Source: a virus
Taxonomy: Duplodnaviria; Heunggongvirae; Uroviricota; Caudoviricetes
DNA length: 44,421 nucleotides
Direction: 5' to 3' (one strand)
Virus record (IMG/VR): IMGVR_UViG_2529292911_000009
Shown here: in pieces, positions 151 to 42,277 of the stretch
How positions within the stretch are numbered: the stretch's first letter is position 1
Layout of the letters: every line of letters begins with the position of its first letter
The notes under the pieces: generated by a model
Databases searched by the model: none
Seen by the model: only the letters and a program-made list of their open reading frames with translations
Told to the model about the DNA's origin: nothing
Position numbers and translations under genes: made by a program

Positions 151-197
151 GATTTGACCCCCCGGTAGAGTTGCCCCTACTCCGGTTTTCGAGACCG
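151..197. repeat. att-type direct repeat, left copy: displaced 3' fragment of tRNA-Ser
   Basis: 47-nt segment matching 42203-42249 with 3 mismatches. On the minus strand it reads as anticodon arm to T arm of a serU-type tRNA but has no 5' half. Identity is exact over roughly 180-197 (anticodon stem-loop), the likely crossover core. Confidence 0.75.
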
Positions 198-939
198 ATG
201 ATACAGAGTCGAAAAATCAAAGAGTTAAAAATTTTTCTTGGAATAAATGTCTTAAAATCGTACACGAAAAATCAATGAATTACATAACATTAAAGAAGAA
301 TATTCCAAGCCTTCTTAAGTCCACCACCTGTTTCAGGTGTCATTCAGACGTGATTTGCCCCAGATTGGGAAAGCACGCTTTTTTCTCAGCTATCGTCCTC
401 TTATTTTGCCGTTACATTTCTTTTTGCGCTCTAATGATTAATTTACAATAATAATATCGGTAATTATTGAGTAATAATAAATTGATTATTGCAAATGTAA
501 TTTAATTCCATCTTCGCGCTATATTCCAATCTTTAATCTCCGCATGGAACAAGTTGCATGCGTGACTATATTAAGACAACTTATAACCACCAAAACATTT
601 GCTTTGCAAGCAAAAACAGTGACCATTGACTCTAAGAAAATTCCGATCTATTGTTAGGGTCATCAAAGTTACTTAACAGTATTCCGAAATGAAAATACAA
701 AGCAAGCTAATTGTCTTATTAAACATTATTATTGCATTTATATTATTTGAGCTTTTAGCTCAAAAATTTGGTTTGAGTACATTATTTTAAAGCAAGATAA
801 ACAATATCGGGCACTCTAGTTTTTATAATTAACAATTAAACGTCCATAAAATGTTATTTACTTTTCTTCGCTATTGTCATATCTTAATATAGTGGCTTAC
901 GCCACTCTACTTTCATCACATTTTGTACGTTTATGTACT

Positions 940-972
940 CGCCATGAAGCTCTTTCATGGCGATTTTTTATT
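940..972 (+). terminator. putative intrinsic terminator in AT-rich prophage arm
   Basis: 9-bp stem cgccatgaa/ttcatggcg with 5-nt loop followed by attttttatt on the plus strand. Confidence 0.4.
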
Positions 973-1235
973 CTTAATCCAAGAACATACTCCCTACCTA
1001 TAGCAAAATCACTTTTTTAACAAAAGAATAACGTATTTAGGTAAAAATTACGAATTTACCCTATAGGTGCTACTGGCCATTCAATATCCGGTGCAGTTGA
1101 TGTATCAACACGGTTCAGCAACACCCGATACTTTTTCCAGGCTTCCAGCAACAAGGTTTCTTCCTCCGTTGCGATTTCCAGCTCAACAACAGTCTGAACG
1201 TACCAGGAACAGCCTCCTTCAGGGCTTGAAGGATA

Positions 1236-2505
1236 TCAATGTTCGCTTCCTGTTAACTGCCCGACAAGTGCAACCAGTTCGCTTACCTGATTTTCCAGAG
1301 TGCTGATCCGGGTGCCTGCTGTTGCCAGATTTTTACGTAGCGTTATGTTTTCCTCTTCCAGCGCGGTAACGCGACCATCTGTTTCACGGGCGACCTGAAC
1401 AAGTAACCCCGTCACGGCGGCGTAGTCAACATTCAGATAACGTGTTTCTTCACGTAATTCATTGCCGTCAACCGTTGGTCCCTGCAACTCTTCACCGTAA
1501 TGAGTAAACGATCCCACAGCTTCTGGTATCGCCTCCATTACTTCCTGTGCAATAACGCCAGCATAAGGCATCCCGTTTTCCCTGAGCGTGTAGGTGTATC
1601 CGTTCATTTTACGGATTGCTTTCGTCGCGTCGCTGATAACGAGAATATCGTCTTTAAGGTCGCGGTCTGATGACTGATTCAGCGTTGTGCAATTAATAGC
1701 GCCATTTACATCAAACAACTGGCCTGCTGACGTTTTTTGCGCATAAAACAGATACGCAGCAGACGTTCCAACCTCAAAAACGTTTTGTCGATCACTTGAT
1801 CCCCATACTTTTGCGGCAAATGATAGTTCTGTATTACCTAAGTTCTGTAAAACAAAACGATTGCCAGTCCCTGATTGTTTTGTAAGAGTTAAATCAACAG
1901 TTGAGTTAACCTCATCCTTGTTGATAGTGAGCGCCTGCGCTTTAGCACCGTTAACAGCACCTGTTTTGAGTTGAACTGCTCCATCACTGCCATTAAGTAG
2001 AATCTCTGCATTACTATGGTAGTTCTTAAGTGACACCATTTTGCTTTCGCCTGAGTGCATACCTAACACCCACGCAGCGGAACTACCTGTACTGTTAAGG
2101 CCGCGAACATAGCATGACATTGTAGAAAATCTGCAACGCTACCAAGTATCTCTACCCTACCTCCACCGGATTTAACTGGTGATGATGTTGTTACTGACTT
2201 AACAGAAAGCTCGGTTGCTGAATTGAGATCGTCAGCCGTAAGTAGTTTTTTCCATTCCTGAACCGTTCCGTTTTCAACTGTTCTTCCCCAAAAACCGGAA
2301 TTGCGGCCTCCGAACTGCACAGCATAATTTTTACTAAATTGAACATGAATGCCGCCAAGAACCATAGAGCCTGCCGGGCCGTTTGTACTACCTGCGATTG
2401 GTCTAAATTTGTCGACGTTATCAGTATGCTGAGCGTTCCAGTCATGACCTGTTAATGTTGCGATTCCTGAGTTAGCTGTAATTAACCCAGACGCTTTTAA
2501 GATTT
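1236..2505 (-). pseudogene. side tail fiber, C-terminal part in two shifted frames; includes C-terminal intramolecular chaperone (peptidase S74-like) domain
   Basis: ORFs 2063..2365 and 1236..2120 continue the tail fiber in other frames. Frame junctions fall at a T5 run (plus 2503-2507) and an A4 run (plus 2126-2129); adding one base at each restores one long ORF. The C-terminus (SFTHYGE...YLNVDYAAVTGLLVQVARE) resembles autocleaving chaperone domains. Could be genuine decay or homopolymer sequencing indels. Confidence 0.65.
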
Positions 2506-4512
2506 TTGCACATCAATTCTGTCGTTTGCGAAATTATATGCAATTGCGTTACTAACGCTTCCGGCATCATCATAATCGCGTTTCTGAATAAACCAGTCGC
2601 CAGCATTAGCAATGAGAGTATAAGTAGGCGTGTTAGCCGGGCGATCTGTTTCATTAAATCTTATTGCTGGGTTAGCGCTCCTTATTTGTAAAGGTTTTTC
2701 AACCGTGGATTTCAGTATCGCACTATCTACAATTAAATTACCTTCTGAGGTAAAGTCTAGATATTTTGTAGCACCAGTTGAACCACCGTATGTAAATCTT
2801 ATTGTTAATCGACCTTGCTCATTTGGAAAAGTCTGAACATACATATCAGCGGCAAGGCGCACAGTGTTGTCATTTGCTAACAGCCTCGTATGGAGCATTC
2901 CGCCAGTAGTGTATGCGCCAGTAGAATCACTAGTCCTATCGAGAAATAGACTATTAAGCTGAGGGCTGTTATCCCTGCCTAATCCAAGATTAGTTCTGGC
3001 ACCATCAATAGTTGCCGCACCAGTACCTCCGGCCGCGATCGAAAGCGGAATCCATCCGCTATTCTCTGCATCGAAATAACCCCATGTTCCTGAATCGTAG
3101 ATACCAAAAAATTTGCTTGCATTTTGACAATATACGCGTGTATTACCTGTTAGTTGAGTAAGCCTGTCCACTTCATCTTTTCTTGCGTGACGCGTCCACT
3201 GCGGGCCTATTGTCGGATTCCAGCGATAAGTATAAAGCGAGCGCGTAGCCCATCCCTGAAATACACCTGTATACGCTGGTGTTCCATCTACCTGACTAAT
3301 AAACCCCGTAAGACTGCTTTCACCGGATGCAATCGATGGAAAGCCTTTTGCATTACTCATAATGCGCATAAATCCGATATACCCTGATGGGTTGCCGGAA
3401 ATATCAGGACAATCACGCGGTGATGCCCCGAGGCCGATGCTGGTGCCTACAATCCCTTGCGCCTGGTTGCGATAATTAAGTGCGTCCGCTGCCGATTTCG
3501 CCGCGTTTGTTTCACTGGATTTAGCATTAGTTTCGCTGGCTTTAGCGTTGGTTTCGCTGCTCTTTGCTGCTGCCTCGCTATTTTTCGCGTTGGTTTCTGA
3601 TTTTTTGGCTGCTGTCGCGGAGTTTGCTGATGCAGTTTGTGAGTCTGCTGCCGCCTGTGCGCTGTTATCTGCATTCGTCTCAGACGTTTTTGCGGCCTTC
3701 GCGGAATTTCCTGCCGCCGTTGCCGAGGAAGCTGCACTACTGGCACTTGATGATGCGTTCGTTTCTGATGATTTCGCTGCCTCTTTTGAGGCCGACGCAT
3801 CCCGGGCTGAGGTGGCAGCTTCTGACGCCTTTGTGGTCGCTGCGGATGCAGAAGTGGCTGCAGATTTTTGTGACGCTGCCGCATTCGTTTCTGACGTTTT
3901 CGCGGCACTGGCACTGGTAGCTGCCGCGCTTTTTGAGGACTCTGCAGCAGCAGCACTTTTCGATGCTTCACTGGCCTTTGTTGATGCCGTTCCTGCGCTG
4001 GAAGACGCTGACTGAGCCGACGACGCGGCCTGTCCGGCTGACGTGCTGGCTGCGCGTGCTGAGCCTGCAGCATCAGTCGCATGGGTTGCCGCCTCACGGG
4101 CTGATGTGCTGGCATCACTGGCTGACTTCTTCGCGGCTGCCGTGTTCTGTGCCACCACGGACGCGTTACGCGCCACCTCTTCCACCATCAGTTCAAAACG
4201 GCGCAGAGCCTCCGGACGGGCATCATCCTCCGTCATGGCACCGAGAAAATCATTCAGCGTACCCGGTTGTGAGTCTTCATACACGGTGATGATCCCGGCA
4301 TGCGATGGCGGGAAGCCTTCCACCAACAGAATAACGCTGTACTGACCGTACTCAACGTCCATGCTGTAACGCCCGGCTTCATCCGGATTTTCAGATGCCA
4401 CCGTGTTCACCACCACCGTGGTGCTGTTACGTTTTGCTTTCAGCTGGATTGTGCAGTTCTGTACCGGTTTACCTGCACCGTCTTTCAGTACACCTGAAAT
4501 TTTTACTGCCAT
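2497..4512 (-). CDS. stf: side tail fiber protein (lambda Stf-like), N-terminal 671 aa
   Basis: N-terminus MAVKISGVLKDGAGKPVQNCTIQLKA matches the conserved Stf start. Long Ala/Ser/Thr-rich region with KSSETNA heptad repeats. True ATG at 4512 preceded by GGGGTGA; the ORF-track start at 4518 is a GTG. Confidence 0.85.
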   Translation of the reverse strand: MAVKISGVLKDGAGKPVQNCTIQLKAKRNSTTVVVNTVASENPDEAGRYSMDVEYGQYSVILLVEGFPPSHAGIITVYEDSQPGTLNDFLGAMTEDDARPEALRRFELMVEEVARNASVVAQNTAAAKKSASDASTSAREAATHATDAAGSARAASTSAGQAASSAQSASSSAGTASTKASEASKSAAAAESSKSAAATSASAAKTSETNAAASQKSAATSASAATTKASEAATSARDASASKEAAKSSETNASSSASSAASSATAAGNSAKAAKTSETNADNSAQAAADSQTASANSATAAKKSETNAKNSEAAAKSSETNAKASETNAKSSETNAAKSAADALNYRNQAQGIVGTSIGLGASPRDCPDISGNPSGYIGFMRIMSNAKGFPSIASGESSLTGFISQVDGTPAYTGVFQGWATRSLYTYRWNPTIGPQWTRHARKDEVDRLTQLTGNTRVYCQNASKFFGIYDSGTWGYFDAENSGWIPLSIAAGGTGAATIDGARTNLGLGRDNSPQLNSLFLDRTSDSTGAYTTGGMLHTRLLANDNTVRLAADMYVQTFPNEQGRLTIRFTYGGSTGATKYLDFTSEGNLIVDSAILKSTVEKPLQIRSANPAIRFNETDRPANTPTYTLIANAGDWFIQKRDYDDAGSVSNAIAYNFANDRIDVQKS

Positions 4513-4520
4513 ATTCACCC

Positions 4521-4552
4521 CACAAAAAAGCCCGCCTGAACCGGCGGGCTGT
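4521..4552 (-). terminator. intrinsic terminator between lom and stf
   Basis: Minus strand agcccgcc-ggttca-ggcgggct hairpin followed by TTTTTTG. Confidence 0.7.
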
Positions 4553-4576
4553 CATAACACTGTGTTACCTGGCTAA

Positions 4577-5176
4577 TCAGAATTTATAACCAACACCCAC
4601 GATGAACCCGTCAGTGCGCCAGTCACCACTGCCGGAGCCTTCATAAGCGACATCAATGGCCACGGATTCGGTCGGGTTAAACTGCACGCCAGCTCCCCAC
4701 GCCAGAGACGTGTTGCTGTGGCGACCGTCATCACTTCCGGTCAGCACATCGTGCTTTTTCCCCTTGTTGTCAGTTACGCGGAGATAATCCCCGGAGAAAG
4801 TCGACACACGGCTGTAAGCCACACCCGCCATCGCATACGCGCTGAACCATTCATTCACGCGCACAGACGGCCCCGCCATTACGCTGAACCAGCGGTTACG
4901 AACGGAATCTTCATGCCAGCGGGTATCGCTGTAACGGGTAATCTGGCGATTCTTGTCTCCTGCATAGCTGAACGACGTCACCATCCCCAGTGTGTCCGTA
5001 AACTCATAACGGTATTTCACGTTAATCCCGTTCAGATCATCACTGCCGGGAACGTTCGTCCGGGCATGAAGATACCCCGCGCTCAGCGTGGACTGATGTT
5101 CAGCCGCCCATGCAGGCGCACCGGATACGGCCAGACAGATGGCTGCGGACAAAATGGCGGCATAAAGTTTACGCAT
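4577..5176 (-). CDS. lom: Lom/Ail-family outer membrane beta-barrel protein
   Basis: Signal peptide [24 protein letters not shown], alternating beta-strand pattern, C-terminal GYKF. Sits between J and stf as in lambda. Confidence 0.9.
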
Positions 5177-5192
5177 AATTACCTCTCGCTTT

Positions 5193-5226
5193 TCTGCAAT
5201 AAAAAAGGCGCCAGAAATGGCGCCCG
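5193..5226 (-). terminator. intrinsic terminator between J and lom
   Basis: Minus strand ggcgcc-atttct-ggcgcc hairpin followed by TTTTTTATTG. Confidence 0.65.
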
Positions 5227-5244
5227 CATATGGGTTATGAAAAT

Positions 5245-8200
5245 TCAGCTAATCGTGATACCTGCTGTGGATTTCTTCATCACCACAACCAGCAAATCGC
5301 TGATGCTTGCTGTGGGATACCAGTTATTTACCAGCCATGCTGACACCGAAAACTCCAGTATCATGTGACCGTGACCGGCAGGCATATCAATAACACCACT
5401 GTAAATCAGCGTATTATCCAGCGCGGTACGGTTATAAATTTCAGCACCGTTTTTCCGCACTATCAGACGGCATGAGGAGTAAATATCAGTATGCTCTCTC
5501 TCATGCTTAGCGCCACTGAATGCCACCGCGGGAATAACAATCTGCCGGTCAAACGGCTGATCGTCATAAACCCTGACGGTAATGGTCCCTGATGGCCACC
5601 GCTCCGGTGCACGGGAGTCCCGGGGGAAAGCTTTGCCCACTGTTTTAACGAGATCGCCTTCAATCTGGTTCGCGGACAGTTTTCCCAGAACCCGACAGTT
5701 CTCGTTAATCGTGACATTGTTGAGCGTCCCTGAATTTGCATTCACATTACCGCTGATATCCGCATTTTTAGCGGTCAGCTTTCCGTCTGGTGTCAGGGAA
5801 AATGCCGGCGGATTTCCACCGCTGGTAATGGTGGGAGCCGTCAGGCGTTTCAGGAACACGTCGTTCATGAATATCTGGTTGCCCTGCGCCACAAACATCG
5901 GCGTTTCATTCCCGTTTGCCGGGTCAATAAACGCGATACGGTTAGCGGCAACCAGAAACTGGCTCAGTTTGCCTTCCTCTGTGTCCTCCATGCTGAGGCC
6001 AATACCCGCGACATAATGTTTGCCGTCTTTGGTCTGCTCAATTTTGACGCCCCACATGGCATTCCACTTATCACTGGCGTCCTTCCACTCTTTCGAAAAC
6101 TCCTCCAGTTTGCTGGCGTTATCCTCCGTCAGCTCGACTTTTTCCAGCAGCTCCTTGCCGAGATGGGATTCGGTTATCTGGCCTTTGAAAAAATCCAGGT
6201 AACCTTCCGCATCATCGCTCGCCCGACCAACAGCCTCCACGAATGCCGATTTGCCGACGGTGTTCACACTGCGGATATAAAAGTAATAATCACGACCCGG
6301 TTTGATATTGATACTGGCGGCTATCCAGTACAGCCCCGTGCCAAGATAGCGGGCTGTGGTTTCAACCTGCCTGATATCGGTAATCCGCTTTTCCGAGAAC
6401 CAGAACTCAAACTGTACCGTCGGATCATAAACCGCAAGATGCGGCGTTGCGGTTATCTGAAAATAGCCCGGCGTCAGCTCAATCCGCGACGGTGCTGCCG
6501 GTGCGGCGATCCGGAACGATACCGACGCCGGATCGCCCTGCTGTCCCCACGCATTTACCGCCCGGACCGTCAGCCTGTAGTTCCCCAGCGCCAGTTGCGT
6601 GAAGCGGTATGTGGTTTCCGTCGTCCTGGCCGTGCTGACCAGCCGCTCACTGCCGTCATCCGCTGCCACGGTCAGGCGAAGCATAAAGCTCACGCCCTTC
6701 ACCACCTTCGGCGTGTCCCATCGCGCCAGCACCTGATATTCCCCGCTGTCTGCGGTGACTTCGGCGGTCAGATGCTGCACTGCTGGCGGCGTGACACCAT
6801 TCACCGTGCCGCTCTGGTCACCGTCAAAGTGCGCCCCGTTATCCACGATGGCTTCTTTCTCCGGTACATGCTGCACGGCAGTGATGGCATACGTGCCGTC
6901 GTCGTTCTCACGGATACTCACACAGCGGAACAGGCGCTGGCGCAGCGTCGGCAGCTTCAGCCCCCACACGCTGTATCCGGCAACGCCGTCAGGAACCCGG
7001 CTCACTTTCACCTTCACGCCGTCGGTGACGGACTGGACCTCCACGCTGACCGGATTGCCACTTCCGTCAACCAGGCTTATCAGCGTGGTGCCGGAGGATG
7101 GCAGCGTGATTTCACGGTCGAGCGTCAGCGTCCGGGTCTGGCTGTTCACCGCCAGCACACGCCCGCCGATGCTGATCCCCGCATAGTCATCATCACAGAT
7201 TTCAATGACATCGCCCGGTACATGGCGAAGCCCTTCGGCACCCACGCTGAAATCCACGGTCTGCGTCTCCAGCAGCTCCGTTTTAATCAGCCACAGCCCG
7301 GCGCGGTGTGCCTGCCCCCGGCTGGTACAGCCAAAGGCATCCATCTTCGTGACGTTACGACCGTAACGGGCAATGGCCTGCGTATCCTCCACAAGCTCTG
7401 TCGCCGTCTCCCAGCCGTTATCCGGGTCAATCCAGTTCACCTCAACGGCATTATGGCGGTCCTTCAGGGCGCTGAAGCTGTAGCGGAACGGCGCGCCATC
7501 ATCCGGCATCACCACATTACTGCGGTTATAGGTCCACACCTTATCCGACGGTCGGTCCTGCACGAACGTCAGCGTCTGCCCGTTCCATACCGGCATACAG
7601 CGCATCGCCGAGCAGAAATCGCTGAGAACATCCCACGCCTTACGCTGTGTGGTCAGCCAGGCATTACAGGTGATGCGCGGCTCCGTGCCGCCAAAACCAT
7701 TCGGTACCAACTGGTCGCAGTACTGGCCGATAACGTACAGCGCCCATTTGTCCACATCTGCCGCACCAAGACGTTTCCCCATGCCGTAGCGTGGATGGGT
7801 CAGCATATCCCACAGACACCAGGCCATGTTGTTGCTGTATGCTGGCTTAAACGTTCCGTCCCAGATACCGCTGTATTGCCGCGTCTGCGGGTTATAGTTC
7901 GACGGCACCTGCAGAATACGCCCGCGCAGATGATAATTACGGCTCACCTGCTGGCTGCCGAACTGCTCCGAATCCACCTGCACGCCGACCAGTGCCGTAT
8001 TCGGGTAGCACTGTTTCACATCGATGATTTCGGTGTATGACGACCAGAGCGTTTTGTTCTGCAGCTGGTCTGTGGTGCTGTCCGGCGTCATCCTGCGCAT
8101 CCGGATATTAAACGGGCGCGGCGGCAGGTTATCCACCACCACCGAGGCCAGATACTGCGAGGTGGTTTTGCCCTTAATGGTGATGTCTTTTTCCGTCACC

Positions 8201-8640
8201 CAGCCACCGTTACGTTGTATCTGAACCAGCAGGCGGACTTCCGATGGATTCCTGTCCCCCTTTGAGGTGGTTTCCACCAGTGCCTGCACACCGAAGGTAA
8301 AGCGCAGACGGTCGATGTTTGCCGACGTGATGGTGCGGGTGATCGGCGTGTCATATTTCACTTCCGTACCCAGCACCGTCTCGGAGCCGGAGGATTCAAA
8401 TCCCTCCGGCGGTGTCTGCTCCTGCTCGCCTGCCCGGAACACCACCGTGACGCCGGAGATATTGGTATTCCCCTCGCTGTCCAGCACCGGCGTACTGTTC
8501 AGCAGCACGCTTTTTAATCCATCCACCGGACCTTCAACCGGACCTTCGCTGATGGCATCAATCACACTCAGCAACTGCGTGGACTTCAGGTTGTCCTTCG
8601 CTTCGCGCGGGGTATGCCCCTTACTGCTGCCTTTACCCAT
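5245..8640 (-). CDS. J: tail tip host-specificity protein J
   Basis: 1131 aa. N-terminus [34 protein letters not shown] and most of the length are collinear with lambda J as recalled; the C-terminal roughly 150 aa diverge. Confidence 0.95.
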
Positions 8641-8700
8641 TCCTCACGCTCCATAAACGACAAAACCGCCCGGAGGCGGTTTCACATAAAACATTTTTCA

Positions 8701-34175: not shown

Positions 34176-34215
34176 AAGTCCTCCTGAAAATTACCTCATG
34201 ACCAGAAATTAACAC

Positions 34216-35298
34216 TTACCCCCTGAAGCCCGGTGGAATTTCGGTATCCGGTTCAGAAATATGATTCACACAACGCTGGTTGTTCGTGCCGCTTACCGGG
34301 AGCAGCCAGGGGTTTTCAAAATTCCGGTCCGGTCCAAAAAACGTCGTCGCTCGCTGAACAAATTCCGTTCCCGTTTTCCCGGTAGCCGCAAGGTATCTTG
34401 CGTAACGCCTCACGCCATCCAGCATGGCCTCTGGTGACACCCCCTCGCGTAATCTGGCCTTCCAAGCACTGAAAGCGGATTTCTTCGGGTTTGCCCCAGC
34501 ACGCAACGGGTATTCCCGCCAGACCTGTTCGAACACATCCGGATAATCCACTCGTCCCACAGGCTGCCCGGTGTTTTCCGGGACTACCCGATCGGCTTCC
34601 CGCTGAATGGCGGAATCGGCTTCAGGCTGCTGCAGTTGGTGTGATTGCTCCGGCCTTGCGGTCATCACCTGCTGCACAGCGCCCGAATCGGCTTTCAGCG
34701 CATACGCTGAATCGGCTTCCGGTGTCGTGCCTGCTGGCTGACCAAGATTGACGGTCTGAACATCCCCTGCCTGGTTCGTGGCGTTTTTTACGCCATGGAC
34801 CATAGTGTTTTGATCTTCTTGATCTGTATCTGTATCTTTATCTGTATCTTTATCTGTCGTGACTCGTCGTGACATGTGCGTGACATTTCGTGACGCGCCG
34901 TGACAATCGCCATTTTGTTCCCGCTTTCTTTCCCTCTCTCGCTGCGCCCTCTTGCGCTCTGCAGGAGATTTTGCGGTTTGCGAAATATTGCCGTTGTCCT
35001 CTTTAAGCACCTGGCGTTTTTCCCATCCAGTGATTAAATCACCATCAAGTACCCGCCCCTGCATCGTCTGCAAAATTGAATCAATTACCTCTTCTGTCAC
35101 GTCGAGCGCACTTGCCAAATCTTCTGTCGTGACATCAATGTGACCTCGCGTGACATTTCGTGACGCGCTCACCAGGAGGTGGATATACACTGCCATCACT
35201 GTTGCAATTGGCTGCCCTGACACCCTGGCAATTGTTCGCCACTTAGGGTCATTTGGCATGTCATGCCATAATCTGAGCCAGGCGTTAGCCATACTCAC
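34216..35298 (-). CDS. replication initiation protein (O-like replisome organizer) containing the iteron origin
   Basis: 360 aa. N-terminal domain MANAWLRLWHDMPNDPKWRTIARV is typical of phage replisome-organizer N domains. Acidic linker DKDTDKDTDTD is encoded by the iteron DNA. Confidence 0.7.
   Translation of the reverse strand: MSMANAWLRLWHDMPNDPKWRTIARVSGQPIATVMAVYIHLLVSASRNVTRGHIDVTTEDLASALDVTEEVIDSILQTMQGRVLDGDLITGWEKRQVLKEDNGNISQTAKSPAERKRAQRERERKREQNGDCHGASRNVTHMSRRVTTDKDTDKDTDTDQEDQNTMVHGVKNATNQAGDVQTVNLGQPAGTTPEADSAYALKADSGAVQQVMTARPEQSHQLQQPEADSAIQREADRVVPENTGQPVGRVDYPDVFEQVWREYPLRAGANPKKSAFSAWKARLREGVSPEAMLDGVRRYARYLAATGKTGTEFVQRATTFFGPDRNFENPWLLPVSGTNNQRCVNHISEPDTEIPPGFRG
34822..34910. 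repeat. iteron cluster (candidate ori) inside the replication gene
   Basis: Tandem tatctgtatcttta units followed by five cgtgac-containing repeats. Confidence 0.6.
35126..35170. repeat. second iteron-like cluster
   Basis: cgtgac repeats; the 20-mer gcgtgacatttcgtgacgcg at 35148-35167 is an exact copy of 34878-34897. Confidence 0.55.
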
Positions 35299-35363
35299 CT
35301 CTTCTGATACCGAATCTTTTTACTCACGAGTTGCCGGAAGCGATTCGATATGGCTATTGTCAG

Positions 35364-35789
35364 TCAATGTACTGCCACAGCATTTCCTGCCGGGCCACCA
35401 CGGTTCATCTGATTGAAACCGGCGATTGCCACTGCGACAAAATCATCAGCGTCTCTCACCAATCGCTCCCGCGTCTCCACCAGCTCCCGAAAATAAGCTG
35501 AACTGTGGCTGCGCATTCTGGCCACCAGCAAAGGTGGCATTGCCTTTTCGATCGCTGGTAACAACGCCTGAATTTTTTCAACTGCATCAGGGGTGTCTTT
35601 CTCTACCCAGCGGAAAATTTTCTGGGTATTGCGAGCCAAGGCTTCCGGATGGCTGTCGTCATACAGTTCCGGGAACGTCATTCCCAGCTCGAAATACGCT
35701 TTGGTAATTTTCGCAGCCGGTACTTTTTCGCCGTCCGGATGCGCCCAGGCATTCATCGCCATGCGGATGTGTTCATGCTTGATTTTCAT
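35364..35789 (-). CDS. YdaT-like protein (CII-type regulator candidate)
   Basis: 141 aa immediately downstream of the Cro-like gene; N-terminus MKIKHEHIRMAMNAWAHPDGEK resembles Rac YdaT as recalled. Confidence 0.5.
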   Translation of the reverse strand: MKIKHEHIRMAMNAWAHPDGEKVPAAKITKAYFELGMTFPELYDDSHPEALARNTQKIFRWVEKDTPDAVEKIQALLPAIEKAMPPLLVARMRSHSSAYFRELVETRERLVRDADDFVAVAIAGFNQMNRGGPAGNAVAVH

Positions 35790-36040
35790 GAATCAACTCC
35801 CATCAGCTTTTTCGTAGTAGTTTTATTCCTGCCAATAGTTAAAATTGCATCGGCAGAAAATAATCCGTTTGATGCAAGAGCGATTTTTTCAGCGTAATTT
35901 GTTTCGCCGGTATATTCTGTGCGAGGCAATTTTCCGTTATCCATCCATTTATAGATTGCTCTTTGGCTGACACCACAAACGTCGGCCACAACAGCAACGC
36001 GAACAGTTTTGATTACATCTTCAAGTGTTTTCTGGTTCAT
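35786..36040 (-). CDS. Cro/YdaS-like HTH regulator
   Basis: About 84 aa from MNQKT with HTH-like segment VADVCGVSQRAIYKWM; divergent from the repressor gene. Confidence 0.65.
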   Translation of the reverse strand: MNQKTLEDVIKTVRVAVVADVCGVSQRAIYKWMDNGKLPRTEYTGETNYAEKIALASNGLFSADAILTIGRNKTTTKKLMGVDS

Positions 36041-36119
36041 ATCACCCTCATAATGTGAACTTTGAGTACATGCTATAACAGAACTGACAGTACATTCAAG
36101 AGCGAATATCATTGAACTT
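36041..36119. promoter_or_regulatory. divergent promoter/operator region of the immunity switch
   Basis: 79-bp gap between divergent regulator genes with two AGTACAT motifs (36064, 36088). Confidence 0.5.
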
Positions 36120-36539
36120 ATGGTTCATGAAGATAAAGCGCGTAAAGAGTTCGCCAGTAGGCTTGCGCTAGCCTGTGAAAACGCTGGTTATGAACAACAT
36201 GGAAGGCAGGCAGAAATTGCCCGTCGAATGAAATTAACACCAAAAGCGGTTAGCAAATGGTTTAATGGCGAAACAATTCCTCGCCGGGAGAAATTAAGGG
36301 AATTAGCAACACTAATAGGAACAACACCAACCTATCTTTTGGGAGAGGATACAGAAGAAAGTGGACAGGTACGTTTCTATCAGGAGTTAAATCCAAGACA
36401 AAAAATCATCATTGACCTTCTGGACGAGCTCCCTGACAGTGAGACAGATGAACTTTTAAAAACTCTTGAAGAGAAAAAACAGAAGTACAATGCAATTTAC
36501 GAAGAGTTAGCACGAAAGAAAAAACAAAAAGCCTCTTAA
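36120..36539 (+). CDS. prophage repressor, RacR-like HTH protein
   Basis: 139 aa with HTH segment QAEIARRMKLTPKAVSKWF, divergently transcribed from the Cro-like gene. Confidence 0.65.
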   Translation: MVHEDKARKEFASRLALACENAGYEQHGRQAEIARRMKLTPKAVSKWFNGETIPRREKLRELATLIGTTPTYLLGEDTEESGQVRFYQELNPRQKIIIDLLDELPDSETDELLKTLEEKKQKYNAIYEELARKKKQKAS

Positions 36540-36833
36540 ACCAGCATAAATCCGGTAGCGCCTTCCTCCGGGTTTGTGCTTCACTTTATCCCATCTCATT
36601 TTTTTACACACAGAATGTACTAAAAGTACTTTACAACAATGAACGCAAAGTACATTATATACCTGCCACCCACCCCGCCCCACAGAATGCAGGGCAATAC
36701 TTCGAGTTACCAGGCAGTGGTCAGGGGTTAAGTAGCCAGCCCGAGGCGTAAGAACATGACGGCAGGGTTCAACTTTAATAACTATGCAGCAGGTTTTTGT
36801 TCCGCTACCCCGGCGTTAAGGGGAAATGAGGTC

Positions 36834-36992
36834 AGCATGGATACTATCAATCTTGGCAACAGCGAATCTCTGGTATGTGGCGTGTTCCCCAACCAGGACG
36901 GTACGTTCACCGCAATGACGTATACCAAAAGCAAAACGTTTAAAACCGAATCTGGAGCGCGTCGCTGGCTGGAAAGAAATTCAGGTGGGTGA
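36834..36992 (+). CDS. small protein, YdaF-like
   Basis: About 52 aa from MDTINLG; resembles the Rac early-left small gene as recalled. Confidence 0.4.
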   Translation, partial: SMDTINLGNSESLVCGVFPNQDGTFTAMTYTKSKTFKTESGARRWLERNSGG

Positions 36993-36993
36993 T

Positions 36994-37122
36994 ATGGATT
37001 TCGACACAATCATGGAAAAGGCTTACGAAGAATACTTCGAAGGCCTTGCCGAAGGCGAAGAAGCTCTCAGCTTCAGTGAGTTTAAACAGGCGCTTTCCAG
37101 CTCGGCAAAATCTAACGGCTGA
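36994..37122 (+). CDS. small acidic protein, YdaG-like
   Basis: 42 aa ORF MDFDTIMEKAYEEYFEGLAEGEEALSFSEFKQALSSSAKSNG read directly from DNA; start overlaps the upstream stop. Below the ORF-track size cutoff. Confidence 0.4.
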   Translation: MDFDTIMEKAYEEYFEGLAEGEEALSFSEFKQALSSSAKSNG

Positions 37123-37151
37123 TAAGCGAAGCAACACCGCGAGGAATCAGT

Positions 37152-37370
37152 ATGCAGAAACGAGAACCCGTCATCATCGCGCCAGATTATACCGATGATG
37201 AACTTTATGAGTGGATGCGCCAGAAAATTAATGCAGCGCAGGATCTGAAATGGGCCAATGAAGCCAGGGCTAAGCAGGCTGAAAATCTGTCCGCTCTGGA
37301 GCAGGATATCACCAGGCTGGAAAAAGCAGCGGCATTAAGCATTGCCAGAATGATTACATACCCGCGTTAA
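37152..37370 (+). CDS. small hypothetical early protein (KilR-position candidate)
   Basis: 72 aa ORF with coiled-coil-like C-terminus; GAGGAA RBS. Confidence 0.4.
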   Translation: MQKREPVIIAPDYTDDELYEWMRQKINAAQDLKWANEARAKQAENLSALEQDITRLEKAAALSIARMITYPR

Positions 37371-37399
37371 TAGCTAACCAACGAAGCTAAGGTTGGTAA

Positions 37400-37935
37400 T
37401 TAAGGAGTTCTCCACGGGTGAGGTGGAGTGCGTGCGCCGGACACGGGTGAGCATCCGGCACTGACAGTTTACTGAAAGGATATTTCCATGAAAAGTCAGA
37501 CCATAACGCGAAAGCGCACGGCGAGGTAGCTGGTTCATAGATAGCCTGTCGTTAAATTTTCGTCGGCCGTGCGCTTCCGGTTGTGGCACTCCGCGAAATG
37601 GCGCGGCGGTAAGTATGGCGGGGTTATTCCTTCCCCGTTGAGGACACCTGGTTGTCAGGTTGACCATACGCTTAAGTGACAACCCCGCTGCAACGCCCTC
37701 TGTTATCAATTTTCTGGTGACGTTTGGCGGTATCAGTTTTACTCCGTGACTGCTCTGCCGCCCTTTTTAAAGTGAATTTTGTGATGCGGTGAATGCGGCT
37801 AAGCGCACGCGGAACAGTTAAAACCAAAAACAGTGTTATGGGTGGATTCTCTGTATCCGGCGTTAATTGTTAACTGGTTAACGTCACCTGGAGGCACCAG
37901 GCACCGCATCACAAAACTCATTGTTGAGGGCGCGA
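37400..37935. other. structured GC-rich noncoding region with nested hairpins and a long-range 15-nt inverted repeat
   Basis: No credible ORF. 14-bp hairpin 37509-37522 / 37566-37579; exact inverted repeat ttttgtgatgcggtg (37777-37791) / caccgcatcacaaaa (37902-37916); GTTAAC-TG-GTTAAC palindrome. Confidence 0.5.
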
Positions 37936-37937
37936 TA

Positions 37938-38126
37938 ATGAAAACGTTATTACCAAACGTTAATACGTCTGAAGGTTGTTTTGAAATTGGTGTCACTATC
38001 AGTAATCCTGTATTTACTGAAGATGCCATTAACAAAAGAAAACACGAACGGGAGTTATTAAATAAAGTATGCATTGTTTCAATGCTGGCCCGTTTACGTC
38101 TGATGCCAAAAGGATGTGCACAATGA
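37938..38126 (+). CDS. small hypothetical protein
   Basis: 62 aa from MKTLLPN with GAGGG RBS; first gene after the structured region. Confidence 0.45.
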   Translation: MKTLLPNVNTSEGCFEIGVTISNPVFTEDAINKRKHERELLNKVCIVSMLARLRLMPKGCAQ

Positions 38127-38314
38127 ATCCAGTATTTGCACTTATTCTGACGGTTTTTCTTGTTTCCGGAGAGCCAGTTGATATTGCAGTCAGTGTTCAC
38201 AGAACAATGCAGGAATGTATGGCAGCAGCAACCGAACAGAAAATTCCAGGCAACTGTTATCCGGTCGATAAAGTTATTCACCAGGATAATAACGAAATCC
38301 CGGCAGGTCTTTAA
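38123..38314 (+). CDS. small secreted/membrane protein
   Basis: 63 aa from MNPVFALILTVFLVSG (signal-like N-terminus) with AAGGA RBS; start overlaps the upstream stop. Confidence 0.45.
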   Translation: MNPVFALILTVFLVSGEPVDIAVSVHRTMQECMAAATEQKIPGNCYPVDKVIHQDNNEIPAGL

Positions 38315-38407
38315 AACAGCACCGTAATAAATATCCAGTTTCATTCTTATATGTCAGCAATGGCAGAGATTTGTTCACCCTTAAATCTGTGATGAGGTTT
38401 ACCAATA

Positions 38408-40849
38408 ATGAGCACTGATAAAGAAGAATTTGCACTATATTGCGAAGCAAAAAATGACAAAGTAAGAAAACGCCTAGGAATTAAAGGTGGTTTTTACTGG
38501 ACTACAGCAAAAAAATTATCTGTTGCAATCTCCCGCTGCATTACCGCAATGGATGACAACGATTATGATGAAGACGACTTTAAAAAACCCGTCCGCGTCA
38601 ATTTGCCCGTTGTTGACGACCTTCCGCCAGAAGGCGTGTTTGATACTGAATTCTGCAACCGCTATGAAAAAGGCGGGAAAGATGGCATCACAATGACATT
38701 TATCGGCCCTTCCCCCTCTGTTCAGGACAAACCAGCCAGCACTGACAATACCAACATCAACGGCGAAGACATGGCTGAGATTGAGGAGAGCATGCTTCTG
38801 CCTGTCTCCGGTCAGGAACTGCCCATTCGTTGGCTTGCTCAACACGGCAGCGAAAAACCAGTAACGCACGTTTCACGCGACGAACTCCAGGCATTACACA
38901 TTGCACGGGCTGAAGAACTACCGGCTGTTACTGCCCTGGCTATTTCGCATAAAACCAGTCTGCTCGACTCGCTGGAGATTCGCGACCTCCACAAACTGGT
39001 TCGTGACACTGACAAAGTTTTCCCTAATCCTGGTAATTCAGACCTGGGACTAATAACTGCTTTTTTCGAAGCATACCTGGACGCTGACTACACTGATCGG
39101 GGTCTGCTGACAAAAGAGTGGATGAAAGGAAATCGTGTTTCACGCATCACCCGCACGGCTTCCGGTGCTAATGCTGGCGGTGGGAACAAAACCGATCGCA
39201 ATCCGAATTTAGTACACACCCTCGACACACTGGATGTGGAGATTGCAGCAGCCACACTTCCGATGGATTTTAATATTTATGAAATTCCGGGCAGCGTTTA
39301 TCGTCGCGCAAAAGAAGTAGTCCTGAACAAAGAAAGTCCGTTCAAAGAATGGTCCGCAGCACTTCGTGCAACCCCGGGTATTCTGGACTATTCCCGCGCC
39401 GCTATTTTTGCACTTATCCGAAGCGCACACCCTGAATTTTATCACTACCCGGGACGCCTTCAGGGGTATATCAACGCCTATTTGACGGAAACTGATCACG
39501 AGAACCCCAGCAAGGAAACTCTCACAGCTGCCCGGCATACGCCGGAAAAAGATATCCTGGAAGAAATTAACCGCGAGGTGGTTACTGAGCGTGAAACAGA
39601 AGAAGAAAAACCACAACCATCTGACGCAATGGCAGGTGAACAGGCAACAACTGAAACAATGGAACCGGATACAACTGAACATGGCCAAAACGCGCAGTCG
39701 CTGGATGCTCAGTCGCAGGTGAGTTCCGCTAACCAAGTAAAAGTCACCGCTGACGAAGTAAACAAAATTATGCAGGCAGCCAATATCAGCCAGCCTGACG
39801 CCGATAAGTTACTTGCTGTATCGCGTGGTGAATTTGTTGAGGGGATTAGCGACCCGAATGATCCGAAATGGATTAAGGGGATCCAGACCCGCGATTCTGT
39901 GAACCAGAACCAGCAAGAAACGGAACAGAACGACCAGAAAGCGGAACAAAACAGCCCAAATACGCAACAAAACGAGCCAGAAACGAAACAACCTGAACCA
40001 GTAGTGCAACAGGAACCGGAAAAGATCTGCACCGCCTGCGGTCAGAGCGGTGGCGGCAACTGCCCTGATTGTGGTGCGGTGATGGGTGACGCAACATACC
40101 AGGAAATATTCGATGGAGAGAATCAGCCTGAAGTTCAGGAAAATGATCCGGAGGAAATGGAAGGCACTGCGCATCAGCACAAGGAGAACCCTGGCGGCAA
40201 TCAGCATCACGCCAGCGATAATAAAACTGGCGAGGCGACAGATCCCTTAATTAAGGTGAATGGTCATCATAAGCTCACATCCACCAGCAGAGCGGGGATT
40301 CATCTGATGATCGACCTTGAAACCATGGGAAAAAATCCCGATGCCCCGATTATCTCAATAGGCGCAATATTTTTCGATCCACAAACCGGAGATATGGGAC
40401 CGGAATTTAGCAAGACCATCGATCTGGATACTGCTGGCGGAGTCATTGATCGTGACGTCATTAAATGGTGGCTAAAGCAATCACGTGAAGCGCAGTCTGC
40501 CATTATGACCGATGAAATCCCGTTAGATGATGCACTACTGCAATTGCGGGAATTTATCGACGAAAACTCCGGTGAATTTTTTGTTCAGGTCTGGGGTAAT
40601 GGGGCCAACTTCGACAACGTGATTTTACGCCGTTCATACGAACGACAGGGTATCCCCTGCCCGTGGCGCTACTGCAACGATCGCGATGTACGCACAATCG
40701 TTGAGCTGGGGAAAGCCATAGACTTCGATGCCAGAACTGCTATCCCATTCGAAGGTGAGCGCCATAATGCACTTGATGACGCTCGTTACCAGGCAAAATA
40801 CGTTTCAGCTATCTGGCAAAAACTGATCCCGAGTCAGGCTGATTTTTAA
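38408..40849 (+). CDS. RecE-like protein with C-terminal DnaQ-like (DEDDh) 3'-5' exonuclease domain
   Basis: 813 aa. N-terminal and central parts resemble the non-catalytic part of Rac RecE as recalled, including CTACGQSGGGNCPDCG. The C-terminal roughly 200 aa carry DEDDh motifs MIDLETMG, NGANFDNVIL and HNALDDARY. Confidence 0.7.
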   Translation: MSTDKEEFALYCEAKNDKVRKRLGIKGGFYWTTAKKLSVAISRCITAMDDNDYDEDDFKKPVRVNLPVVDDLPPEGVFDTEFCNRYEKGGKDGITMTFIGPSPSVQDKPASTDNTNINGEDMAEIEESMLLPVSGQELPIRWLAQHGSEKPVTHVSRDELQALHIARAEELPAVTALAISHKTSLLDSLEIRDLHKLVRDTDKVFPNPGNSDLGLITAFFEAYLDADYTDRGLLTKEWMKGNRVSRITRTASGANAGGGNKTDRNPNLVHTLDTLDVEIAAATLPMDFNIYEIPGSVYRRAKEVVLNKESPFKEWSAALRATPGILDYSRAAIFALIRSAHPEFYHYPGRLQGYINAYLTETDHENPSKETLTAARHTPEKDILEEINREVVTERETEEEKPQPSDAMAGEQATTETMEPDTTEHGQNAQSLDAQSQVSSANQVKVTADEVNKIMQAANISQPDADKLLAVSRGEFVEGISDPNDPKWIKGIQTRDSVNQNQQETEQNDQKAEQNSPNTQQNEPETKQPEPVVQQEPEKICTACGQSGGGNCPDCGAVMGDATYQEIFDGENQPEVQENDPEEMEGTAHQHKENPGGNQHHASDNKTGEATDPLIKVNGHHKLTSTSRAGIHLMIDLETMGKNPDAPIISIGAIFFDPQTGDMGPEFSKTIDLDTAGGVIDRDVIKWWLKQSREAQSAIMTDEIPLDDALLQLREFIDENSGEFFVQVWGNGANFDNVILRRSYERQGIPCPWRYCNDRDVRTIVELGKAIDFDARTAIPFEGERHNALDDARYQAKYVSAIWQKLIPSQADF

Positions 40850-40907
40850 TGTTCAACCCTAATTGCCGCTAACCGTATATAGTTAGCGGCGGTTATGAGA
40901 TATAGCT

Positions 40908-41111
40908 ATGAGCAGCTTATTTTTAACCGAAGATGAATTGCTAATATTAACGGGCTGCAAATATGCAAGCCACCAGCGAAAATGGTTAATGGAAAACGGG
41001 CTTCCGTTCTATACCAATCGTAGTGGCAAACCGATTGTCAGCCGGGATCTATTTACCTGCAATAAAACTTTACCACCACGCGAGGTAGAGCCGAATTTTG
41101 GTGCGATCTGA
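40908..41111 (+). CDS. excisionase-like protein
   Basis: 67 aa ORF immediately upstream of, and translationally coupled to, the integrase gene. Confidence 0.55.
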   Translation: MSSLFLTEDELLILTGCKYASHQRKWLMENGLPFYTNRSGKPIVSRDLFTCNKTLPPREVEPNFGAI

Positions 41112-42135
41112 TGGGAAGACGAAGGAAAAATCCTGAACACGAAAAATTACCTCCAAATGTATACCCAAATAAATATAGTTATGTATGGAAACCAACATCC
41201 AGAGAATCTGTCACACTAACCGCCATCAAGGATGGTTTAGCTGCTTTATGGAAAAAGTATGAGGAAACTGTAAATAATCGCGATCGTGCAATGACATTCG
41301 GTCGCTTGTGGGAAAAATTCCTCGCCAGCGCCTATTACAGTGACCTTAGTCCAAGAACACAAAAAGATTATCTGCAACATCAAAAAAAGTTGCTTGCCGT
41401 ATTCGGTAAGGTACCAGCGGATTCCATAAAACCAGAACACATCCGTCGATACATGGACAAAAGAGGGGAGCAGAGTAAAACGCAAGCCAACCATGAAAAA
41501 AGCAGTATGTCCCGTGTTTACAGTTGGGGGTATGAGCGAGGGTACGTGAAGGCTAACCCATGTGCAGGTGTAAGTAAATTCAAGGCCAAAAACCGCGAAC
41601 GATATGTAACCGACAAAGAATACCAGGCAGTATTAAGCGTTGCACCTCTTCCTGTTTTTATCGCAATGGAAATTGCCTATCTGTGTGCAGCGAGGGTTTC
41701 CGATGTGTTATCGCTGAAATGGGAACAGATTGGAAACGACGGGATATTCATCCAGCAAGGGAAACCGGAAAAAAACAGATAAAAGCATGGAGTCCACGAT
41801 TACAGGCAGCGATCGAAAAAGCAAAACAGTTACCAAAATCTGCCTATGTGATCAGCAATCAATACGGCAACCGATATATGTACAAAGGCTTTAACGAAAT
41901 GTGGGTAGATGCAAGAAATCGTGCTGGAAAAATTTCAGGTATTTTAACCGACTTCACCTTTCATGATCTGAAGGCGAAAGGAATTTCAGACTATGAAGGA
42001 AGCAGCCGGGATAAGCAACTTTTCTCTGGTCACAAAACCGAAGGGCAAGTGCTAATCTATGACAGGAAGGTTAAAGTTTCACCAACACTTGATGTCCCGT
42101 TACCTGAAAATATTCCAAGAAAATATTCCAAGTAA
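41111..42135 (+). pseudogene. int: tyrosine integrase, frame interrupted by a single-base deletion in a short A run
   Basis: ORFs 41111..41782 and 41683..42135 are one integrase in two frames. Restoring one A near 41762-41764 gives IFIQQGKTGKKQIKAW, a typical integrase motif. True pseudogene or sequencing indel. Confidence 0.75.
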
Positions 42136-42187
42136 TTCCAAGTGTGATTTTTGTCACTGACTTAATGATGTGTAAGTGATTGAATTT

Positions 42188-42277
42188 TGGCGGAGAGAGG
42201 GGGATTTGAACCCCCGGTGGAGTTGCCCCCACTCCGGTTTTCGAGACCGGTCCGTTCAGCCGCTCCGGCATCTCTCC
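42188..42277 (-). tRNA. serU: tRNA-Ser (anticodon CGA), serU-type
   Basis: 90 nt with long variable arm, anticodon loop CUCGAAA, CCA encoded. 5' end GGAGAGATGCCGGAGCGG. Confidence 0.85.
42203..42249. repeat. att-type direct repeat, right copy (inside intact tRNA-Ser)
   Basis: Matches 151-197 with 3 mismatches; two of them form a compensatory base-pair change in the tRNA variable arm. Confidence 0.75.

Follow-up and report, generated by a model that had tools for sequence, protein, structure and literature searches.

The window analysed here, a 44,421-nucleotide stretch of the viral record IMGVR_UViG_2529292911_000009, holds a lambdoid prophage inserted at serU, between yodB and mtfA. The prophage body (198..42202) was delineated from the PGAP annotation of a twin prophage, 14EC029, and from the Pfam content of the source contig. 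Its first part carries tail fibre, Lom, J, tail, HK97-type head, terminase and lysis genes, in this order, and the lysis genes are followed by four tRNAs, Q, the early region, a cI/cro-like pair, an exonuclease, a DUF4224 gene and int. Read from int to the tail fibre, the gene order is lambda-like, both in the annotation of the twin and in the Pfam families of the source contig. The twin is covered by a single 43.2-kb alignment at 99.67% identity and is free of insertion sequences. As the sequence-only reading had stated, an intact tRNA-Ser lies beside the integrase; ARAGORN calls it at 42188-42277 on the minus strand, with its 3' end facing the integrase ORFs at 41111-42135.

The integrase gene (41111..42135, plus strand) encodes a lambda-Int-like tyrosine integrase and carries a 1-nt deletion, GGGAAAACC to GGGAAACC, at about 41762-41765. 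One A is lost from a run of only four A, and the product ends at residue 223 of 341, with the catalytic C-terminal part lost. The intact form matches PF00589 (E=1.7e-11), PF22022 and PF14659 (central and SAM-like domains), and its alignment with lambda Int (1z1b) spans residues 1-313, lambda Int structures being found at E=1e-12. The catalytic set of tyrosine recombinases is R-K-H-R-H-Y, with residue roles as in lambda Int. The Arg of box I, the lysine region (GKTGKK), the GH motif and the tyrosine (LIYDRK) are present, and the position of the second Arg is occupied by Lys (HDLK versus HELR), a substitution that homologues of about 58% identity share. At its N-terminus, too, the protein can be aligned with lambda Int (MGRRR..LPPN.Y); for the arm-binding domain, a Pfam search of the intact form gave no match to an arm-domain model. 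PGAP flags int of 14EC029 as frameshifted, a flag that we rejected as an annotation artefact, since that sequence has an intact 341-aa ORF. The gene in front of int, in the Xis position, encodes a DUF4224 protein (40908..41111, plus strand; PF13986, E=1.9e-15, and the twin annotation), and its stop codon overlaps the int start (TGATG).

Two attP arms lie at the ends of the prophage body. The int-distal arm (198..391) is common to many serU junctions at 95-99% identity, and the int-proximal arm, from the int stop to the tRNA 3' end (42136..42187), is 98-100% identical in attP-type viral contigs. Candidate arm-type Int sites with the motif TATTCCAAG lie at 237..245 (minus strand) and 301..309 (plus strand), and three direct arm-type repeats (TATTCCAAG, TATTCCAAG and AATTCCAAG) lie on the int-proximal arm at 42111..42142 (plus strand), overlapping the end of int. 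The exact motif occurs four times in the 44-kb window against 0.28 expected, and all four copies are within about 130 nt of the junctions. When one mismatch was allowed, the motif was not enriched window-wide (12 found, 10 expected), and the arm-site evidence is restricted to the exact copies and the adjoining AATTCCAAG. The triple repeat stands at the same position in diverged homologues, where the motif varies with the integrase lineage. Int may bind TATTCCAAG. For the Citrobacter-type Int, the candidate arm motif is TATACCAAG.

A pattern search located exactly two copies of a 47-nt direct repeat in the window (0 expected, 100 shuffles), at 151-197 and 42203-42249, with three mismatches and none, respectively, relative to the tRNA copy. 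Equivalent points in the two copies are 42,052 bp apart. Alignment of the left with the right copy places the mismatches at 158 (C/A), 167 (A/G) and 178 (T/C). The left copy had been taken to repeat the 3' half of the tRNA; the repeat itself stands, but it covers tRNA nt 29-75, or 76 with one more G, rather than the whole 3' half. Within the window, the left copy lacks the last 14 tRNA nt, since it is bordered at 149/150 by one end of an IS186 element. The displaced resident, host-type serU fragment (150..197, minus strand; tRNA nt 29-76), which forms the int-distal att junction, carries the A-U alleles of the variable arm (167 and 178) together with a decay variant at T54 (158 C). In the IS-free twin prophage 14EC029 the repeat extends to 77-78 nt at 91% identity. 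The homology ends at tRNA nt 29, and the allele markers leave nt 29-47 as the interval of the exchange. With an allele marker at 178 and the homology ending at 198, strand exchange must therefore fall within 179-197. This 19-nt crossover block, ACTCCGGTTTTCGAGACCG in the left copy (179..197) and repeated in the right copy at 42231..42249, spans the anticodon stem-loop. The identical stretch, and with it the crossover, had been proposed at 180-197; the location was right, and the exact extent, 179-197, is one nucleotide wider.

The intact tRNA (42188..42277, minus strand) is a functional hybrid serU tRNA-Ser(CGA), in which at least 42188-42230 is phage DNA and 42250-42277 is host DNA. It folds into a cloverleaf with an MFE of -42.6 kcal/mol. 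In this structure tRNA nt 48 and 59 (window 42230 and 42219) are paired, in agreement with the compensatory variable-arm pair claimed from the sequence alone; the intact tRNA has G-C here, the left copy A-U. Position 158, in turn, corresponds to the unpaired first base of the T-loop. The crossover left both bases of the 48:59 pair on its phage side, and the pairing is therefore preserved. Where do the two alleles come from? In a serU survey of one genome per species, 109 of the 120 loci had A-T and 11 had G-C. K-12 serU has the same A..T allele as the left copy. Among these loci, those of Escherichia with G-C carry the int arm and those with a K-12 flank have A-T. Across complete E. coli genomes, compared by totals and not genome by genome, the G-C tRNA was found in 1179 records and the int module in 1094 of 5426 genomes (about 20%). 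The proposal that the 3' part of the tRNA is phage-donated is upheld by attP-type contigs, in which G-C is joined to phage DNA on both sides. These distributions mark A-U as the resident allele and G-C as one that moves with this integrase module. The source strain presumably had the resident allele before lysogeny, as other strains do.

The empty site in K-12, which has the order yodB, 570 bp, serU, mtfA, asnT without a prophage, agrees with the proposed junctions: the window matches K-12 at 149-197 and then again from 42173 onward. The element of about 42 kb that had been defined from the repeats recurs in other genomes with the same two junctions as one 42-kb block. In several genomes the whole 198-42202 block, 99.4-100% identical, sits in the interval from yodB to serU; near-identical prophages in this range are 14EC029, ETEC4085 and CV839-06, and the same junction without the IS is found in CV839-06 and 14EC029. 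Three IMG/VR contigs (L136, L138 and L149) join the sequence ending at 42249 to that starting at 198, which is the predicted attP joint. The order in these contigs is contiguous, with int, arm, tRNA 3' part (G-C), core and left arm, and in L149 the int arm is joined to the left arm over 1 kb of the latter. The contigs could be excised circles or joints of tandem prophages, and the same crossover is seen either way. The joint at 42249/198 is predicted to read GAGACCG directly followed by ATGATACAG, with the G-C allele.

Several phage records were set aside in this search. Phages ev099 and mEp332 matched window 42173-42249 as candidates for true serU attP sites, but their tRNA piece is the host allele and is accompanied by 278 bp of the K-12 serU-downstream flank, so that they are not attP. 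In E. coli FORC_081 the same block is found next to bioA-ybhB (the lambda att site), and it represents cargo, a fossil host-prophage junction. The records ON470583 and ON470580 were rejected as the phage itself, being prophages excised with host flanks (mtfA, asnT), and are uninformative on attP.

The left end of the window (1..149, plus strand) is the terminal stretch of a 1339-bp IS186 (IS4 family) that is complete but otherwise lies to the left of the window. It includes the 23-bp terminal inverted repeat (127-149) and is identical, at all 149 positions, to the end of K-12 IS186B. This IS end is multi-copy in E. coli genomes, with up to 24 places per genome and occurrences on plasmids. The source contig, L167, holds the full 1339-bp element with its DDE_Tnp_1 (PF01609) transposase. 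The right-hand copy of an 11-bp target-site duplication, GGATTTGACCC, occupies 150..160, and the identical 11-mer stands directly before the other IS end on that contig. The rest of the tRNA fragment (TGGCGGAGAGAGGGGGATTTGACCC) is found beyond the IS, and yodB with a K-12-type flank directly after it. The left copy therefore does not lie inside another element but is itself interrupted by IS186. The element is reportedly drawn to GC-flanked targets, with a hot spot at the lon promoter. K-12 IS186 A, B and C, the three copies from which we derived the target rule, have the target GGGG-N6-CCCC with a GG-N6-CC duplication, and the geometry here is the same, with identical terminal repeats and a duplication of 10-11 bp. 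What distinguishes this target from others is its place in the T-arm of a dead tRNA fragment, where N6 arose only after the T54 mutation. Intact tRNA T-arms have N7 spacing, and in the displaced T-arm the A-to-C change at T54 turns G5-N7-C5 into G5-N6-C6. The third mismatch (158, T54) is thus a decay mutation that predates the IS and supplies its GGGG-N6-CCCC target spacing. The IS186 split, the different nature of this mismatch and the broken Int had all escaped the earlier reading.

The attribution of the G-C pair and of both junctions to one integrase-catalysed event has to be weighed against other origins. The G-C/A-U difference might be an ordinary host polymorphism of serU rather than phage-donated, with the left copy a diverged duplicate. 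The G-C pair does occur in a few other Enterobacterales (Brenneria, Rosenbergiella, Entomohabitans) at which no int arm of the window type was detected, and it is therefore a naturally tolerated variant. In Escherichia, however, the species scan ties G-C to the int arm and A-T to the K-12 flank, the E. coli totals of allele and module are nearly equal, and in the attP-type contigs G-C has phage DNA on both sides, which makes a host polymorphism highly improbable. We give no more credence to a left copy derived from a different, older element, a remnant or a tandem partner, with 151-197 not a true boundary. Such an origin would fit the many serU junctions that share the left arm (198-391) with different partners, the fossil junction copies inside unrelated prophages at the lambda att site, and the IS adjoining the left copy. 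It is at odds with the recurrence of the 198-42202 block with both junctions from yodB to serU, with the int arm and left arm joined in attP-type contigs (in L149 over the 1 kb noted above), with the same arm-site motif on both arms, and with yodB and the K-12-type flank right behind the IS. RecA-dependent homologous recombination across the tRNA homology of about 77 nt, without the integrase, is scarcely credible. It would find a substrate in the intact configuration, whose repeats share 91% identity over 77-78 nt, but the exchange fell in the same 19-nt anticodon block at every junction examined, this block adjoins an int of the lambda type, both arms bear arm-type repeats, and the module occupies this site in about one fifth of E. 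coli genomes.

The lesions of the prophage call for a similar weighing. In addition to the int deletion, the tail-fibre gene, of 1091 aa in the intact twin, is split by +/-1 indels at 2126, 2498 and 2503; its N-terminal piece (2497..4512, minus strand) has 671 aa. Altogether seven indels separate the window from the twin, all of them +/-1 in A or T runs, and substitutions are very rare across 21-42 kb. Indels of this kind are also a signature of sequencing error. If the int and tail-fibre frameshifts were homopolymer artefacts of sequencing or assembly, the prophage would be intact and inducible. Of the lesions, those in int and at 2126 in the tail-fibre gene are the only ones with independent support. 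The exact 223-aa Int was called in three independent assemblies, one NCBI isolate and two separate metagenomes, and a 294-aa tail-fibre fragment was called in two other assemblies; the run that lost the A in int is merely four A long. We downgraded the artefact explanation for int in view of the identical truncated product in the three assemblies, and consider it unlikely overall.

We are highly confident that a lambdoid phage integrated into serU by Int-catalysed recombination at the anticodon block, producing a hybrid tRNA, and later decayed. In this reading a temperate phage entered serU by site-specific recombination, with its lambda-Int-type tyrosine integrase as the catalyst. In its attP, the phage carries its own version of the tRNA, which starts at the anticodon stem and reaches about 15 nt past the 3' end. 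Strand exchange occurred within the 19-nt anticodon stem-loop block (179-197 / 42231-42249), where the 7-nt anticodon loop (186-192 / 42238-42244) may serve as the overlap region and the stem halves as inverted core sites. The outcome is a working hybrid tRNA beside int, its 5' part from the host and its 3' part from the phage, and a resident 3' part pushed 42 kb away, beside yodB. Subsequently, the dead fragment gained the A-to-C change at T54, IS186 inserted with an 11-bp duplication and split the fragment, Int lost one A and was cut off at residue 223, and the tail-fibre gene was frameshifted. The junctions, the alleles, the IS with its duplication and the lesions are direct observations; we infer the exact cleavage positions, the binding of Int to TATTCCAAG and the loss of inducibility.

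With Int and the tail fibre damaged, the prophage can most likely neither excise on its own nor yield infectious particles, and with Int broken, an induction PCR for attP and attB in this strain would probably be negative. If the prophage were excised, serU would be left without its 3' end. It is conceivable, if rather doubtful, that this amounts to a one-way ratchet, in which a neutral T54 mutation gave IS186 a target and the insertion then eliminated the sole spare 3' half of serU. The phage-borne 3' half would then be the only one in the cell, and any precise excision would yield a serU-null cell. The strain would be expected to survive such a loss, because the serU anticodon is altered in supD strains and UCG can be read by tRNA-Ser(UGA). 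Were displaced fragments commonly to decay in this way, there would be a general passive route that fixes tRNA-integrated prophages independently of integrase loss.

This is an ordinary, already-sequenced lambda-like prophage whose biology is already known, and current understanding is unchanged. The analysis provides base-level boundaries that are of use in annotating a very common E. coli prophage type, and for this lysogeny the G-C variable-arm allele of serU offers a simple marker. The case is also a clean worked example of three known principles, namely how tRNA 3' copies in attP stay functional through compensatory change, how a crossover can be mapped by allele markers, and how displaced fragments decay. 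For induction or curing work in this strain it is relevant that the copy is most likely grounded and defective.

Phages and islands that integrate in tRNA genes are well documented (Islander, PMC4383910), and an anticodon-loop sublocation class of tRNA att sites has been described (Williams 2002, as summarised in bioRxiv 10.1101/2020.11.02.365908). The present element resembles them in carrying a tRNA 3' part, regenerating the gene and leaving the displaced fragment at the far end, and it resembles the anticodon-loop class in a repeat that extends from the anticodon stem as far as the 3' end, with symmetric stem flanks around the presumed overlap region. Nothing essential differs; what is added here is a compensated base-pair difference between the phage-borne and the resident copy, and an IS that splits the displaced fragment. 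serU itself is a known lambdoid prophage site in E. coli, as in STEC O145:H28 (PMC7067040), and the phage record SerU-LTIIb (KU052038) is assigned to the same locus. 14EC029, ETEC4085 and CV839-06 are the same phage, from which the present copy is set apart by IS186 in the displaced fragment and by the int and tail-fibre frameshifts.

A close model is phage lambda. As in lambda, the integrase appears to be a heterobivalent tyrosine recombinase, aligning from residue 1 and with the putative arm-binding N-terminus included, int adjoins attP with a small gene before it in the Xis position, candidate arm motifs are repeated on both attP arms, with three direct repeats on the int side, and the gene order is lambdoid. 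Unlike lambda, the small gene here is a DUF4224 gene in which no similarity to lambda Xis was detected, and box II reads H-D-L-K, as kept in the subfamily, instead of H-E-L-R. Whereas lambda uses the gal-bio intergenic attB, this phage targets the anticodon stem-loop of a tRNA gene, with about 77 nt of target homology that rebuild the tRNA.

A pattern search of the window returned only two matches to the 47-nt repeat, one at 42203-42249 and one, with 3 mismatches, at 151-197; 100 shuffles gave none. The right copy lies within the tRNA-Ser(CGA) gene (42188-42277, minus strand), whose 3' end points towards two integrase ORFs that overlap (41111-42135). The minimum-energy cloverleaf pairs tRNA nt 48 with nt 59 (window 42230 and 42219) in the long variable arm, the pair being G-C in the tRNA versus A-U in the left copy. 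In the structure computation, a change at nt 48 or nt 59 alone weakened the variable-arm stem, which bears out the earlier claim from sequence that these two differences compensate each other. The third mismatch, at 158, corresponds to T54, the first T-loop base, and is unpaired. The same sequence-only reading had the 3' half of the tRNA repeated at the far end. The repeat itself stands, but the full 3' half is not present in the window, as the homology of the left copy ends at 149/150, 14 nt before the tRNA 3' end.

The K-12 MG1655 locus reads yodB, 570 bp, serU, mtfA and asnT with no insertion, and its serU carries the A..T allele found in the left copy. Aligned to the window, K-12 matches 149-197 and then 42173-43345, with nothing between, so that the empty-site comparison proposed earlier yields matching junctions. 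The right-hand flank of the tRNA holds mtfA, asnT and a P4-type integrase in fragments. The arm-DNA-binding and catalytic domains of this integrase (43495-44421, and 43506-43664) are in different frames, with an apparent internal deletion. Next to it on the source contig come yersiniabactin-type genes, for a chorismate-binding enzyme, an MFS transporter, two ABC transporters and an AraC regulator; this suggests a High-Pathogenicity-Island-like element at asnT with a dead integrase.

The segment 198-42202 was found as a single contiguous block in other complete genomes at 99.4-100% identity. The IS-free prophage of E. coli strain 14EC029, annotated with serU on one side and yodB on the other, aligns to window 149-43345 over 43.2 kb in one piece (99.67%). 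There the displaced fragment is whole, and the att repeat has a length of 77-78 nt (91% identity). The annotated gene order is the standard lambdoid one: int, DUF4224, exonuclease, dicB/ydfC-type early genes, a cI/cro-like pair, replication genes, RusA, Q, four tRNAs and lysis genes, then HNH and terminase, portal, HK97-type protease and capsid, tail genes, J, Lom and tail fibre. About 115 of the 136 substitutions relative to this twin fall in window 11000-17000, the tape-measure and tail-shaft region, and the remainder is almost identical; the clustering indicates a recombinational patch, as in mosaicism. The four phage-borne tRNA genes (26221-26530, minus strand), flanked by the Q antiterminator gene and by lysis genes, are Gly-TCC, Thr-TGT, Lys-TTT and one with a CAT anticodon, called Met by ARAGORN and Ile by PGAP in the twin. 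In E. coli CV839-06 (NZ_CP025753.1), the int-distal junction (4,914,567, plus strand) and the int-proximal half of the same prophage (3,958,523-3,979,655, minus strand) are ~956 kb apart in opposite orientations, suggesting either a large chromosomal inversion with a breakpoint within the prophage or a misassembly.

Which allele came with the phage was addressed by a scan of 120 loci, one genome per species. A-T prevails, at 109 loci, and G-C is rare, at 11. Loci with the K-12-type flank are A-T, and the Escherichia G-C loci (L039 and L089) carry the window-type integrase arm at 97.7%. Among complete E. coli genomes, the exact G-C tRNA occurs in 1179 records and the two-mismatch form in 4246, and the int-DUF4224-tRNA module (coverage of at least 80%) is present in 1094. 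Three IMG/VR viral contigs (L136, L138 and L149) carry int (97.6-99.7%), the 52-nt int-proximal arm (98-100%), the G-C tRNA 3' part, the core and the window left arm, all contiguous. This is the attP joint predicted by the model and the most direct evidence on the allele. These contigs could be tandem-prophage joints and not circles; either way, the same exchange would be their source. Because G-C is tied to the integrase arm and to attP-type contigs, the 3' part of the working tRNA is phage-derived, with the resident copy at the far end, in agreement with the proposal of a phage-donated 3' half and a displaced host-type fragment. A second flank type 3' of the displaced fragment (...gtaagtgattgattttgttgaatgat followed by TGGCGG) occurs in seven IMG/VR contigs (L130, L133, L135, L139, L141, L150 and L153) and matches the flank 'gat' followed by 'tggcgg' of E. 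whittamii, E. ruysiae and Escherichia sp. E1V33. In L135 and L150 the displaced fragment has the G-C allele, implying a serU resident that would already have been G-C before a later integration.

The third mismatch differs in origin from the other two, being a product of decay in a dead copy. In E. coli genomes window 1-149 is a multi-copy sequence, present at as many as 24 places in one genome and in some cases on plasmids. It matches the final 149 nt of K-12 IS186B without a difference, the 23-bp terminal repeat (127-149) included. The source contig, NCBI AIGA01000039.1 (assembly GCA_000249695.2; 100% identity to window 31111-44421), holds the complete 1339-bp IS, bordered by ...gataaagTGGCGGAGAGAGGGGGATTTGACCC on the far side and GGATTTGACCCCCCGGTAGAG on the near side, with an 11-bp target duplication, GGATTTGACCC. 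Beyond it lie the K-12-type flank and yodB, zinT and msrQP (98.4%). Since the far-side sequence is found past the IS, the displaced serU fragment is complete but split. All three K-12 IS186 copies sit in a GGGG-N6-CCCC target with a GG-N6-CC duplication. The A-to-C change at 158 converts the T-arm from G5-N7-C5 to G5-N6-C6, the spacing of those targets, and as C is present in both duplicated copies, the change is older than the insertion; it probably enabled the IS186 hit. Comparable changes are seen in other copies that are non-functional (L148 and L129), and all intact tRNAs surveyed with a GGGGG/CCCCC T-stem retain GAACCCCC. Neither IS186 nor the separate origin of this mismatch was part of the sequence-only reading.

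The left copy has resident bases at 167 and 178, the right copy has phage bases at 42219 and 42230, and homology ends at 198/42250. Together these place strand exchange inside 179-197/42231-42249, ACTCCGGTTTTCGAGACCG, a block spanning the anticodon stem (minus its first base) and loop. The reaction would be lambda-like and of the anticodon-loop sublocation class, a known class of tRNA att sites (bioRxiv 10.1101/2020.11.02.365908), its overlap region probably being the 7-nt anticodon loop. The alignment of the twin's intact Int with lambda integrase structures covers residues 1-313 and takes in the N-terminal MGRRR..LPPN.Y segment; the protein has catalytic, central and SAM-like Pfam domains. 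Exact TATTCCAAG, a candidate arm-type site, occurs four times in the 44-kb window (0.28 expected by chance), always within ~130 nt of the junctions: at 237-245 (minus strand), 301-309, 42111-42119 and 42124-42132. A third tandem copy, AATTCCAAG, at 42134-42142 is a further candidate arm site. Between int and the tRNA, diverged homologues in other genera have a triple direct repeat, TATACCAA or TTTTCTCA, at the corresponding position. A conserved position with a motif that varies with integrase lineage is the appearance expected of arm-type sites, for which these repeats are candidates. Box II of int (~41960-41985) reads H-D-L-K, with Lys in place of the second catalytic Arg, whereas lambda Int has H-E-L-R; as H-D-L-K is kept in homologues at ~58% identity (L032, L043, L088 and L111), it is a trait of this integrase subfamily and not decay.

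Relative to intact copies, a single A is missing from int in GGGAAAACC, and the Int product stops after 223 of 341 residues, ahead of the HxxK, GH and Tyr motifs. Seven indels separate the window from the twin (three in the tail-fibre gene, one in int, one in a hypothetical gene and two intergenic). Sequencing error was suspected, all seven being +/-1 changes within A or T runs; however, the exact 223-aa Int product is called in one isolate assembly and two metagenome assemblies, and a 294-aa tail-fibre fragment in two further assemblies, so at least the int lesion and one tail-fibre lesion are real. The prophage can most likely neither excise on its own nor assemble a normal tail fibre. Its excision would fuse serU to the fragment truncated by the IS, and the gene would lose its 3' end. 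The 14EC029 int (L007 1773-2823) is flagged by PGAP as a frameshifted pseudogene, yet it contains an intact 341-aa ORF identical to that of ON470583; the flag is probably an annotation artefact that stems from a reference whose C-terminus extends further, across the TATTCCAAG repeats.

The lambdoid virion genomes ev099 (LR597635; L006 2239-2773) and mEp332 (L005) carry the window left arm, a host-allele (A-T) serU 3' fragment and 278 bp of K-12 serU-downstream flank (97%). The same block lies in a defective prophage beside bioA-ybhB, the lambda att site, in E. coli FORC_081 (L157 ~5000-8300). The block adjoins an AraC-family regulator and IS remnants, and 169 complete E. coli genomes contain at least 80% of it. 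It looks like a fossil serU host-prophage junction, in which host DNA would have been taken up by aberrant excision and later carried by lambda-site phages with a different att module.

Lambdoid phage integration at serU is already documented (PMC7067040), a phage database contains a record named after the serU site, and an essentially identical prophage is present in public genomes. The standard model (PMC4383910) has the tRNA rebuilt from a phage-borne 3' part and the displaced fragment marking the far end. The earlier finding is correct but already known, and to it the present comparison adds, on a small scale, the compensated allele as a lysogeny marker, the IS186/T54 detail and the candidate arm sites.
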